Assembly (NCBI GenBank): GCA_016792845.1
Contig: JAEUKH010000018.1
Location: 202,984-266,983, forward strand
Direction of reading: 5' to 3'
Length of the DNA stretch: 64,000 nt
Source: Myxococcales bacterium
GTDB lineage: Bacteria > Myxococcota_A > Polyangia > Polyangiales > Ga0077539
The translations under genes and the position numbers were made by a program. Below are positions 33,558-36,051 of this stretch, piece by piece; the stretch's first letter is position 1; every line of letters starts with the position of its first letter. The notes below the pieces were generated by a model. It searched no databases and was not told the origin of the DNA. It worked only from the letters and a program-made list of their open reading frames with translations.

Positions 33558-34832
33558 CTACCAGCGTACGGGGCGCGGCTCGGTGGTGGTGTCGGCGCTG
33601 TCGTCGCCGCGTTGCCCGTCGGTGTTGTCGCCCCAGCACCAGGTGCGGGCGTCGCTGAGCTCGGCGCAGGCGTGGCGCGACCCGAGGGTCAGGAGCGTGA
33701 CGCCGACGCGGCTCAGCCCGAGCCCGGCGAGGGTGGGCGTCGCGCGCGCGGGGCCGTCGGTGGCGAGCTGGCGCGCGGCGTTCGCGCCCACGCAGAACAC
33801 CGCCTGCGAACCGACGCCGCAGGTGAAGCCGTCGCCCGCGCCGAGGCGCTCGGCCTCCCACCCGGTATCGACCGGCGACGCGGCGACGCTGTCTTGTTGG
33901 CCGTCTCCGAAGGCCCCTTCGCCCCGCGCGCCCCAGCACCAGACCGCGCGACCGCGCAACGCACACCCGTGGTGCGCGCCGAGCGCGACGGCGTTGAGGG
34001 AGCCCGTCTCGAGCCCGCCCTCGACCCTCCGCGGCGGCACGCTCGGCGCGCGGGCCGAGTGCCCGGCTTCACCGTCGACGTTGCGCCCCCAGCACCAGAG
34101 GCGCCCCGCCTCGTCGAGGGCGCAGGCCGTGGCCTCGCCCGCGTACAGTTGCACCGCGCGGGCGCCGAGCGCGACGCCCTCGCCTGCGTCTCGGTCGCGC
34201 CCCAACTGCCCCGCGTCGTCGCGGCCTGCGCAGCGCACCTGCCCCGCGACGAGGGCGCAGGTGAAGCCCGCGCCGGCCGCCACCGCGGTGGCCCTGAGGC
34301 CCGTGTCTTGTGCGCGCAGGGTCACCGCGCCGGGCTCACGAAAGAGCGCGCCCTCGCGGCCGTCGCCCCAACACCAGAGCGCGCCCTCGGGGCCGACCAG
34401 CGCGCACACATGATGGGCTCCCGCGGCGAGGGCGGTGACCCCTTCGAGCCCCGGCACCCAGCCCGGGCGACGCCGCGACGCGGTGGTGCCATCGCCCAAC
34501 TGTCCGATGATGTTTTGCCCCCAACACCAGACCCGTCCGTCGGTGCGCAGGGCGCACGAGAACGCGTCACCCGCCGCGAGGGCGCGCACCTGCCCGCCCG
34601 GCACCGGGGCGACATCGGGCGCAACATCGGGCGCAACATCCTGCCCGAGCTCGCCCTGCACATCGCGCCCCGCCTCGACGCCGAGGTCGCGCGGAACGTC
34701 AAAGCGCAGCCCCCCCGCGTCGTCGACGTCGGGTCGCGCCGCATCGACGCCGCCGTCACCGAGCTCGCGTCCGAGCACCACCACCCGCGAGCACCCCGCG
34801 ACGAGCCACAGCCACGGCAGGGCGCGCCTCAT
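33558..34832 (-). CDS. RCC1-repeat (regulator of chromosome condensation-like) beta-propeller lipoprotein
   Basis: Signal and lipobox MRRALPWLWLVAGCS. Five or more RCC1 repeats (CALRTDGRVWCWGQNIIGQLG…, VCALVGPEGALWCWGDG…, ACALDEAGRLWCWGRNVDGEAG…, TWCWGDNTDGQRG). Start overlaps the upstream gene by 4 bp. Confidence 0.75.
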   Translation of the reverse strand: MRRALPWLWLVAGCSRVVVLGRELGDGGVDAARPDVDDAGGLRFDVPRDLGVEAGRDVQGELGQDVAPDVAPDVAPVPGGQVRALAAGDAFSCALRTDGRVWCWGQNIIGQLGDGTTASRRRPGWVPGLEGVTALAAGAHHVCALVGPEGALWCWGDGREGALFREPGAVTLRAQDTGLRATAVAAGAGFTCALVAGQVRCAGRDDAGQLGRDRDAGEGVALGARAVQLYAGEATACALDEAGRLWCWGRNVDGEAGHSARAPSVPPRRVEGGLETGSLNAVALGAHHGCALRGRAVWCWGARGEGAFGDGQQDSVAASPVDTGWEAERLGAGDGFTCGVGSQAVFCVGANAARQLATDGPARATPTLAGLGLSRVGVTLLTLGSRHACAELSDARTWCWGDNTDGQRGDDSADTTTEPRPVRW

Positions 34833-35491
34833 GGCCCCTCGATGCCGCACACCCGTCGCACCCGCGCCGCCTGCGGAGAGCGCGGATGCCGCGTCACAAA
34901 GGCCCGCCCCCGCGCCGTGCGGCTCGGGTCTTCGAGGCAATCGCAGAGCGCCGCGGTGGCGAGACGCTCTTCGACCAGCTGTCCGTTCGCGAAGCGCCGC
35001 GCGTGGGTGTCGAGGGCCGCCCGCGCGGCCGAGAATTCGTGAGCCTCCATCGCGCGACGCGCCACCCCGAGGAGCCTGAGCTCTTCTTGAAGCGTGTCTT
35101 CGTCGCGCACCGCGACCCGCGGAACCGCAGCCCCCACCGGCCGCCTCGGTACGTCTTCGGGGCTCACCGTCGGGCTCACCGTCGGGCTCACCGCCGGGCT
35201 CACCGTCGGGCTCACCGTCGGGCTCACCGTCGGGCTCACCGTCGGGCTCACGCGCCATCGCGGCGCCGGGTCGGGCGTCTCGGGCTGGGAGCGCGTCGCG
35301 CGCCAGAGCCCCGCCAGCGCGAGGGCCACGAGGGCGCCGAACACCCAGCGGCGCCAAGACGTCTCGGCACGCGGCGCCGCCTCGACCCGCGCGAGCCGGG
35401 CACGCACCCGCGCGCGATCGGCCGCCGTCGGAGAGAGCGCCGCGCGCCCCGACACGATCAACGCGCGGGCCTCAGGAGAGAGCTCGCTCAT
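34829..35491 (-). CDS. putative anti-sigma factor (single TM) with a Ser-Pro-Thr-Val tandem repeat
   Basis: Directly downstream of the ECF sigma gene with an ATGA overlap. N-terminal cytoplasmic segment, TM helix WVFGALVALALAGLW, then eight SPTV units encoded by a perfect 12-bp DNA repeat. Confidence 0.55.
   Translation of the reverse strand: MSELSPEARALIVSGRAALSPTAADRARVRARLARVEAAPRAETSWRRWVFGALVALALAGLWRATRSQPETPDPAPRWRVSPTVSPTVSPTVSPTVSPAVSPTVSPTVSPEDVPRRPVGAAVPRVAVRDEDTLQEELRLLGVARRAMEAHEFSAARAALDTHARRFANGQLVEERLATAALCDCLEDPSRTARGRAFVTRHPRSPQAARVRRVCGIEGP
35160..35255. repeat. perfect 12-bp tandem repeat (GGGCTCACCGTC)x8 inside the anti-sigma factor gene
   Basis: Seen directly: seven identical 12-mers and one with a single substitution (GGGCTCACCGCC). 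Encodes (SPTV)n on the minus strand. Confidence 0.9.
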
Positions 35492-36051
35492 GGCGCGGCC
35501 CTCTGCACCCGGGCCACGGCCTTCTCGAACTCGGCCCGCGCGAGGCGCAACCGCGAGTACACCGTATTGACCGGAATTTTCAGCATCTCTGCGACCTCCG
35601 GGGCAGCCATCGATTCGACCTCCATCAGCCAGAAGACCTCGCGCCGTTCGAGCGCGATGGCCGCCACGCAGCGTTCGAGCTGGACCGCAGCCTCGCGACG
35701 TTCGGCCTGGACGTCGGGCGCGTTGTGCCCGTCGTCGCCGAGGCTCTCGGGCAAGGCCTCGTGGGCGCCCTTGCGACGGCGCCAGCGACGAAAATCGCTG
35801 GCCACGCGGCGCGCGATGGCGAAGAGCCAGGTGCGCGGCGAGGCGCGGCCCTCGAAGTCGTCGAGCCGACGGTGGGCCACGATGAAGACCTCTTGCGCGG
35901 CGTCGTCGAGGCTCGCCTCGTCGAGGCCCATGCGCCGCAGCGAGCGCCACACGAAATCGAACTCAGACTCATAAAGCGCCTCGAAATCGGGGCGAACAAA
36001 GAGTGTCGCGAGCGACACCGACACGACCAACGAGAGCCACCACATGGCCAC
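35488..36051 (-). CDS. ECF-family RNA polymerase sigma-70 factor
   Basis: Region 2 (FEALYESEFDFVWRSLRRMG…VFIVAHRRLDDFEGRASPRTWLFAIARR) and region 4 (…EVAEMLKIPVNTVYSRLRLAR). Confidence 0.8.
   Translation of the reverse strand: MAMWWLSLVVSVSLATLFVRPDFEALYESEFDFVWRSLRRMGLDEASLDDAAQEVFIVAHRRLDDFEGRASPRTWLFAIARRVASDFRRWRRRKGAHEALPESLGDDGHNAPDVQAERREAAVQLERCVAAIALERREVFWLMEVESMAAPEVAEMLKIPVNTVYSRLRLARAEFEKAVARVQRAAP

Follow-up and report, generated by a model that had tools for sequence, protein, structure and literature searches.

The window analysed here is a stretch of 64,000 nucleotides of the Myxococcales bacterium contig JAEUKH010000018.1 (assembly GCA_016792845.1), and the element in question is a 12-bp tandem array in the gene that directly follows a sigma factor gene of the extracytoplasmic function (ECF) type. 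This array probably arose by recent slippage amplification of a unit encoding VSPT within an ancestral Pro/Val/Ala-rich disordered tether of a sigma-coupled single-pass membrane protein, which is called the partner below. It is an ordinary in-frame repeat within a spacer, slippage of which alters the length of the tether only, and it is probably a variable-number repeat in a spacer rather than a regulatory switch. The array and the two genes concerned are:

35160..35251, minus (coding) strand: tandem array of 12 bp x 7.7, residues 81-111 of the sigma-coupled protein (Tandem Repeats Finder, TRF; shuffles; GC content at third codon positions, GC3)
34829..35491, minus strand: partner, putative membrane-anchored anti-sigma factor of 220 aa (sequence, frame analysis, family alignment A1)
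35488..36045, minus strand: ECF (group 4) sigma-70 factor of 185 aa, ATG at 36045; a GTG start at 36051 is also possible (187 aa)

The array was reported by TRF with a period of 12, 7.7 copies, 97% matches, no indels and a score of 177, the highest among the short-period repeats of the window, which has a base composition of 70.5% G+C. The unit is GGGCTCACCGTC as given by TRF and GTGAGCCCGACG on the coding strand. Seven full units are followed by an 8-nt partial eighth, and a single T>C substitution changes the third plus-strand unit (35184..35195) to GGGCTCACCGCC, by which Ala replaces Thr. The sequence-only reading of this DNA had described a perfect repeat of eight 12-bp units, also termed near-identical; the array is real and the latter term is correct, but "perfect" and "eight" were slightly overstated. 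A two-unit probe with up to three mismatches gave seven matches, all inside the array and none elsewhere in the window, and it found no match in any of 100 dinucleotide-preserving shuffles. On the minus strand the array encodes (VSPT)7-VSP (actual sequence VSPTVSPTVSPTVSPTVSPAVSPTVSPTVSP) and is flanked on the coding strand by CCGGCGCCGCGATGGCGC on the 5' side and CCCGAAGACGTACCGAGG on the 3' side. The Pfam PT disordered repeat (PF04886), aligned to residues 83-115, missed its gathering threshold (23.2 bits vs. 26.2), the likeness being one of composition only. Apart from this sub-threshold match, the partner matched no curated family.

Since the unit comprises 12 bp, i.e., four codons, its gain or loss stays in frame, and the gene is never switched off. 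The shift of reading frame or promoter spacing that marks contingency or phase-variable loci is thus not produced by a 12-bp unit inside a coding sequence. Phase variation of the frameshift type was rejected, as the unit length is a multiple of three.

The interval 34829..36051, which had been read as a sigma/anti-sigma pair, comprises exactly two overlapping minus-strand open reading frames (ORFs). In the order orfX, ECF sigma, repeat-bearing ORF and RCC1 lipoprotein, these two form a cassette on the minus strand with one gene on either side, orfX lying directly upstream of the sigma gene:

36085..37053, minus strand: orfX, secreted protein of 322 aa (NCBI MBL8601582.1 / JNK72_06645; 100% match to P0158)
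33558..34832, minus strand: RCC1-repeat lipoprotein of 424 aa with the lipobox LVAGC, last gene of the cassette (Pfam WD40_RLD, RCC1_2, RCC1)

No match to orfX was found in Pfam or NCBIfam. The stop codon of the sigma gene and the ATG of the partner gene overlap as ATGA, and the TGA of the partner gene and the ATG of the RCC1 gene do likewise. GC3 is 0.86 over the whole partner ORF and reaches 0.97 in the VSPT frame across the array and 0.96 over 35151..35300, as compared with 0.63 and 0.73 in the other two frames. The positions at which the GC3 signal switches frame from sigma to partner to RCC1 coincide with the ATGA overlaps. Judged by its codon-position GC content, by the size of its homologous family and by the conservation of its translational coupling to the sigma gene, the repeat-bearing ORF is a real gene, as had been assumed.

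An alternative ORF on the same strand starts with ATG at 35258, translates the array to (EPDG)n and extends into the RCC1 gene (to 33558), giving a product of 566 aa. This ORF is a plausible trap for gene callers. It was rejected on the basis of GC3, of the conserved C-terminal domain of the partner and of the lipoprotein start of the RCC1 orthologues.

The domain architecture of the partner was derived from an AlphaFold model, built on an alignment of eight sequences, and from hydropathy and profile searches. Four segments were distinguished, all encoded on the minus strand:

35354..35491, minus strand: cytoplasmic N-terminal region, residues 1-46, two predicted helices
35291..35353, minus strand: predicted transmembrane (TM) helix, residues 47-67, RRWVFGALVALALAGLWRATR (AlphaFold and hydropathy)
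35105..35290, minus strand: disordered, Pro/Val/Thr/Ser-rich periplasmic tether (predicted local distance difference test, pLDDT, 42-56)
34832..35104, minus strand: C-terminal periplasmic helical domain, residues 130-220, a BamD/YbgF-like tetratricopeptide repeat (TPR) domain (profile, Pfam, Foldseek)

The two N-terminal helices (residues 6-19 and 23-38) were modelled with a pLDDT of 71-83. Residues 1-46 carry the family motif MSxLSPEARAL...PTAADRARVR (alignments A1 and A4) and are a candidate sigma-binding segment. The TM helix had block-mean pLDDT values of 49-62, and the hydropathy maximum was located at residues 50-68. Residues 68-130 were predicted to be disordered, with a pLDDT of 42-56 over residues 61-130 and below 50 across the array. 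From the Trp at the end of the TM helix (W63) to the DEDTL motif the tether measures 66 residues, 31-32 of which are contributed by the array. The array begins 13-14 residues past the predicted TM helix. Thus, the placement of the repeat just outside the TM helix in an extracytoplasmic tether, as proposed from the letters of the sequence, was borne out by the predicted topology and the AlphaFold model.

The C-terminal domain was modelled with a pLDDT of about 90 (87-95 for residues 131-215). The family profile aligned it to residues 17-103 of BamD (9pxg_D) with E=9e-6. Among eight family members, six matched the Pfam family YfiO (best E=7.6e-7) and seven TPR_14, and the top Foldseek matches were the TPR domain of YbgF (2xev, probability 0.99) and BamD chains, all with E>=0.08. 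At the level of the family, the domain is a TPR domain of the BamD/YfiO-YbgF type. A pair of Cys residues in this domain is kept in seven of the eight members, and both are lost together in P0005; the pair would fit a periplasmic disulfide.

The gene upstream of the partner gene had been read as an ECF sigma factor gene, and all Pfam and NCBIfam matches of its product exceeded their cut-offs: Sigma70_r2 (PF04542, 48.2 bits, cut-off 24), Sigma70_r4_2 (PF08281, 38.5 bits, cut-off 25.7), Sigma70_ECF (PF07638, 23.1 bits, cut-off 21.1) and TIGR02937 (69 bits, cut-off 42.9). With matches to curated models, the sigma-2 and sigma-4 domains only and a length in the range of about 170-200 aa, the protein belongs to the ECF sigma factors. 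The NCBI form is MBL8601581.1, encoded on a contig of 275,627 bp, and the exact 185-aa form was present on 12 Logan contigs.

A homologue of the partner was encoded directly downstream of an ECF sigma gene in 14 of the 14 relatives examined, i.e., on three Logan contigs, at seven Myxococcota loci of metagenome-assembled genomes (MAGs) from GTDB, on two JGI contigs and on L022 and L033 (L numbers denote contigs and loci). The seven MAG loci and the two JGI contigs had been yielded by a contig scan with a two-sequence alignment and by a scan of metagenome contigs, respectively, and are all distant relatives. The sigma factors of the relatives were 40-70% identical to that of the window. Among the first 12 loci, the sigma gene lay immediately upstream in all 12, and the 4-bp overlap of the sigma and partner genes was present in 9 of 11. 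As judged by the ATGA overlap and the conserved adjacency, the partner gene is encoded next to and co-transcribed with the sigma gene. In addition, the partner alone among the proteins of the cassette joins a TM helix to a cytoplasmic segment, orfX and the RCC1 protein carrying export signals.

On context alone, the partner is likely to be an anti-sigma factor. The earlier assignment to this function was thus supported by gene context and topology, but not by a known anti-sigma domain in the N-terminus (Pfam, NCBIfam and PDB). The segment does not have the make-up of class I or zinc-binding anti-sigma (ZAS) domains: about 46 residues, forming two helices, precede the TM helix, and residues 1-46 contain no His or Cys. 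Class II anti-sigma domains, e.g., those of CnrY and NepR, are short and consist of two helices, which bind between sigma-2 and sigma-4. The partner has two predicted helices (pLDDT 71-83), and its profile search returned no anti-sigma PDB chain; the N-terminus appears to resemble class II in size and helix count, which is a lead only. In the main text of a re-classification of ECF sigma factors (PMC7826278), no applicable Myxococcales group and no TPR anti-sigma factor was found.

A profile search covering 1.84 billion representatives returned 29,312 representatives at 50% identity with E<=1e-3, 20,019 with E<=1e-10 and 1,409 with E<=1e-30. Judged from these searches, the partner belongs to a very large, unnamed family of Myxococcota. 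In all family members, the TM helix and the TPR domain were separated by a low-complexity segment, and these segments cannot be aligned to each other. A strong in-frame tandem repeat at the DNA level was found in the tethers of 4 of 12 genes, each with a different unit. At the protein level, the repeat strength among 156 family members was 21 for the window and 12 for the next best, and only a handful of members showed any repeat. Tether lengths of the orthologues, counted between the Trp cluster that closes the TM helix and the D[ED]DTL motif with which the TPR domain opens, and tether repeats in the DNA were as follows:

Window: tether of 66 residues; DNA repeat of 12 bp x 7.7
L004: tether of 66 residues; DNA repeat of 15 bp x 4.3 (VVAPP)
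L022: tether of 66 residues
L033: tether of 64 residues
L001: tether of 57 residues
L010: DNA repeat of 24 bp x 3.8
L012: DNA repeat of 39 bp x 2.4

The orthologous tethers share composition only (Pro/Val/Ala(/Thr/Ser)). By a cruder estimate, tethers of the wider family span about 53-148 residues with a median near 78. With one unit only, the tether of the window would comprise about 38 residues and be shorter than that of any sampled member. Within the orthologous group, the sequence of the tether thus appears to be free and its length constrained. Since lengths of 57-66 residues are combined with unalignable sequences, mild polymorphism of the copy number is to be expected, within bounds. 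The array has the look of a recent amplification that homogenises the sequence and holds the tether at the length of its group.

Conspecific strains, 99.1-100% identical, were detected in at least 11 sequencing runs (SRR10555725; SRR12425352, SRR12425353, SRR12425364; DRR438532; SRR29844863, SRR29844866, SRR29844868, SRR29844869, SRR29844875, SRR29844876). At the locus, 12 Logan contigs of the left flank (found via the sigma factor) and eight of the right flank (via a vault-like gene) were obtained, nine of which were fetched and checked. Each of the contigs L013-L017, which share 99.5-100% identity with the window, breaks off after 260-279 nt of the partner gene, i.e., 20-39 nt into the array. 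On the other side, L018-L020 start at window position 35189, with 30 nt of the array still to come, and L021 starts at 34149, inside the RCC1 gene. Because the contigs break in the array, the focal copy number is unreadable in the Logan assemblies. The sequence bordering the array in the window, and the outermost ~30 nt of the array at either end, recur exactly in contigs from the two sides. In k=31 assemblies, a nearly pure repeat of more than 31 nt is systematically a breakpoint.

Sequence variants of the array units (units 1 and 3) were observed in two strains. L013 carries G245C (Ser>Thr) and two synonymous changes, and L016 carries G245C. In L013, 3 of 18 mismatches fell within the 39 nt of the array that it covers, about 0.2 being expected. 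A second 12-bp repeat lies in the neighbouring gene:

34612..34640, minus strand: in-frame 12-bp repeat GATGTTGCGCCC encoding DVAP, in the RCC1 gene (TRF, 2.4 copies)

L018 and L020 (99.1% identical) contain an exact 12-bp insertion in this repeat, resulting in 3.4 instead of 2.4 copies and an RCC1 protein of 428 instead of 424 aa. Thus, at a distance of 520 bp from the focal array, this species does show slippage of units in a 12-bp in-frame repeat. The proposal that the array is hypermutable and varies between strains was therefore supported in part, by unit-sequence variants within the array and by the neighbouring repeat that differs by one unit, the copy number of the array itself being unreadable.

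In exact look-ups, the 185-aa sigma factor and orfX were present in the protein collection. Absent were the 220-aa partner and its forms with alternative starts (210, 208 and 192 aa), the 187-aa sigma factor and the RCC1 forms of 424, 430 and 566 aa. A homology search with the 220-aa partner gave nine matches, the best with 42% identity, and no full-length copy from the same species, because contigs break at the array. A homology search with the RCC1 protein returned no match to its own sequence. The absence of the partner and the RCC1 protein suggests that the region is unannotated or otherwise annotated in the public record.

Several observations weigh against the view that the array amplified in the tether of a single-pass protein coupled to sigma. 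The 7.7 copies are a provisional count, taken from the MAG assembly. No match to zf-HC2, RskA or another anti-sigma family was obtained in Pfam or NCBIfam up to E<=10 for the window protein and seven relatives. A 43-sequence profile of the N-terminus found no anti-sigma chain in the PDB, the best match being an uncharacterised protein with E=0.08. The hydrophobic core of the TM helix is short (about 15-17 residues). The window protein alone stays below the Pfam thresholds for TPR and YfiO, which are passed by the family profile and other members only. Finally, the length constraint rests on five orthologues, of which L004 and L022 are close relatives.

Three other explanations were weighed. 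The partner may be coupled to the sigma factor without being an anti-sigma factor, e.g., as a co-sensor, a positive regulator or an envelope protein of the regulon, the sigma factor being controlled otherwise. The lack of a detected anti-sigma domain, the cytoplasmic part of merely ~46 residues and the conservation of orfX, likewise a member of the cassette, would agree with this; but the partner follows the sigma gene in 14 of 14 relatives, mostly with the ATGA overlap, it alone in the cassette combines a cytoplasmic segment with a TM helix, and short two-helix anti-sigma domains such as CnrY and NepR exist. We regard this explanation as unlikely. An artefact, by which the array belongs to the (EPDG)n frame of the 566-aa ORF or owes its length to an error of the MAG assembly, appears highly improbable. 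Although an ORF with an ATG start exists, the partner and the RCC1 protein are missing from the protein collection that holds sigma and orfX, and short-read graphs cannot resolve the array, such an artefact is at odds with the GC3 of 0.96 in the VSPT frame, with the C-terminal domain that the VSPT frame encodes past the array, conserved as it is across tens of thousands of proteins, with the lipoprotein signal at the ATGA overlap in RCC1 orthologues and with the exact reproduction of flanks and array ends by Logan contigs from both sides.

The third explanation is a hypermutable, contingency-type locus, the copy number of which often varies and tunes the reach of the anti-sigma sensor, leading to heritable heterogeneity in sigma activity and in expression of the RCC1 operon. 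The near purity of the array favours slippage, variant units are over-represented in it when strains at 99.5% identity are compared, the neighbouring RCC1 repeat differs by one unit between strains, and a lengthened RcsF affects trans-envelope signalling in E. coli (PMC5736177). Against this, contigs break in the focal array, so that no difference in copy number is observable there, and a unit that is a multiple of three allows no on/off switching. Moreover, tethers of ~53-148 residues in the family suggest that small changes in length are tolerated, the clustering of orthologues at 57-66 residues points to bounded rather than free variation, and a second repeat of the window, (DASPTV)n, was invariant across eight runs. 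We therefore consider a contingency-type locus distinctly unlikely and prefer the reading of the array as the product of recent slippage amplification in a spacer.

If the partner acts as an anti-sigma factor, its two cytoplasmic helices would sequester the sigma factor at the membrane. The TPR domain, on a tether of up to ~20 nm (66 residues x 0.31-0.36 nm), would touch a periplasmic or outer-membrane partner, for which the co-encoded secreted orfX or the RCC1 lipoprotein would be candidates; orfX could be such a partner or the source of the signal. The signal would free the sigma factor, and the most likely route would be site-1 cleavage in the tether and then intramembrane proteolysis of the RseP type, as known for other single-pass anti-sigma factors. 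Each unit gained or lost would change the tether by four residues, or ~1.2-1.4 nm if it is extended. Tuning of the regulator by tether length is speculative. In E. coli, a lengthened RcsF restores Rcs signalling in a periplasm that is widened by a longer Lpp (PMC5736177), and the methods of that study include an 'RcsF+7' construct, so that small changes in length can matter in principle. It would be a long shot to propose that the family is a large unnamed class of Myxococcota anti-sigma factors with a minimal two-helix sigma-binding segment and a BamD-like TPR sensor on a length-calibrated periplasmic tether, and that in this lineage the VSPT copy number sets the tether length, so that by slippage the set-point of envelope sensing for the orfX/RCC1 cassette comes to differ from strain to strain.

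The cassette of orfX, sigma, partner and RCC1 genes recurs in L004, L022 and L033, the upstream gene being truncated at the contig end in L033. L001 contains the first three genes of the cassette and then only the start of a lipoprotein gene. A homologue of orfX was found upstream of the sigma gene at 5 of the first 12 loci (L001, L003, L004, L005 and L006), and the genes in the orfX position of L022 and L033 were assigned by position only. In RCC1 orthologues, the coding sequence opens with a lipoprotein signal exactly where the ATGA overlap lies. The sequence-only reading had the regulator control the downstream RCC1 and vault-like genes. For RCC1 this agrees with its conservation in the cassette of four other lineages, but the vault-like gene is absent downstream in L004, L022 and L033. 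Since other genes follow the cassette there, the idea that the vault-like gene belongs to the regulon was rejected. In the window, this gene (30630..33371, minus strand) encodes a 913-aa protein with the Major Vault Protein domains PF11978 (shoulder; 37.8 bits) and PF17795 (repeat; 32 bits), and the identical protein was present on eight Logan contigs.

A scan of 33300..38500 for sigma-70 promoters returned no sites, and an inspection by eye and by regular expression for ECF-type -35/-10 elements upstream of orfX revealed no clear pair. The motif CGTGCTAGCGTCG is common to L001 (1-40), L004 (~4010-4070) and L022 (~130-175), where it lies 6-9 nt before the orfX ATG, and its counterpart in the window is GACGCGTGGG (~37095..37125, minus strand). 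This motif could mark a leaderless start or form the -10 element of a promoter.

The second repeat that had been noted in the window, (DASPTV)n in a MYXO-CTERM protein, is real:

15887..15954, minus strand: (DASPTV)n repeat, 18 bp x 3.8, 94% matches (TRF), in the gene at 15713..17311

Its peptide is VDASPTVDASPTVDTSPTVDA, and it lies in a lipoprotein-like protein of 532 aa, the C-terminus of which (residues 501-532) passes the MYXO-CTERM model TIGR03901 with 20.7 bits (cut-off 20). No variation of this repeat was seen, an identical gapless 532-aa protein being present in eight runs, among them five divergent strains at 99.5-99.7% identity; this comparison was made by exact-product look-up, which finds identical products only. 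The adjoining gene at 17744..19558 (minus strand) belongs to the Pfam families Cu2_monooxygen / Cu2_monoox_C according to the Logan gene tables. These families are peptidylglycine or dopamine beta-monooxygenase-like and unusual for a bacterium. The maximal TRF score of the window (341) was obtained for a 99-bp period x 3.0 with 76% matches at 627..929, in the minus-strand ORF 161..1375. Overlapping repeats of 21, 27 and 39 bp with TRF scores of 77-113 occupy a Gly/Pro-rich coding stretch at 48576..48683.

As far as the present evidence goes, the repeat itself is an ordinary spacer of low complexity. The sigma-coupled unnamed family, of which at least 1,400 clusters at 50% identity are strong among a total of about 29,000, is a more interesting by-product than the repeat. 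If the tether length sets the reach of the TPR domain, the orthologues provide a natural length series (57-66 residues with unrelated sequences) for relating envelope geometry to ECF signalling in myxobacteria. In practical terms, nearly pure in-frame repeats of this kind cut k=31 assemblies apart, and an alternative ORF that overlaps the genes could lead gene callers astray.

The partner can be compared with known single-pass anti-sigma factors. In DdvA of M. xanthus, a flexible tether (Q95-S143) joins the TM helix to a TPR-containing sensor, and DdvA truncated within the tether or lacking the periplasmic domain undergoes RseP-dependent degradation (PMC11506125). As in the pairs RseA/RpoE of E. 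coli, RsiW/SigW of B. subtilis and DdvA/DdvS, the partner gene comes right after an ECF sigma gene and is translationally coupled to it. Like these anti-sigma factors, the partner is predicted to combine a small N-terminal part in the cytoplasm with a single TM helix, a flexible tether next to the membrane and a folded sensor in the periplasm, and it shares with DdvA a long flexible tether and TPR elements. It differs from class I/ZAS anti-sigma factors in its N-terminus of ~46 residues with two helices and no His/Cys zinc motif, the ZAS domain of DdvA comprising ~70 residues. Whereas sensors of the RseA/RsiW/DdvA type are RseB-binding, CHAT or other domains, the periplasmic domain of the partner is a minimal BamD/YbgF-like TPR domain of ~90 residues.

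CnrY of Cupriavidus metallidurans is a single-pass membrane protein the gene of which adjoins that of its ECF sigma factor, and its short periplasmic tail works with the sensor CnrX; NepR is an anti-sigma factor from Alphaproteobacteria. The match of the partner to CnrY and NepR is one of helix count in the AlphaFold model and not of sequence similarity, and the partner has a tether and a TPR domain instead of a short tail. In comparison to BamD and YbgF (CpoB), the TPR domain of the partner has about two to three hairpins and an inner-membrane anchor rather than a lipid anchor. At classical contingency loci, units of 1-7 bp switch genes on and off through changes of the frame or of promoter spacing, whereas a unit of 12 bp adds or removes four residues. 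More closely, the array resembles in-frame variable-number tandem repeats of envelope proteins: a short coding unit is arranged head to tail, is prone to slippage, as seen for the sister repeat in RCC1, and differs in sequence between strains. Like the Glu-Pro/Lys-Pro region of TonB and the linkers of RcsF and Lpo, the tether is a low-complexity, Pro-rich, extended periplasmic spacer, of the kind by which a domain held at one membrane can meet a partner on the far side of the periplasm, but unlike these it is built from a nearly pure DNA tandem repeat.

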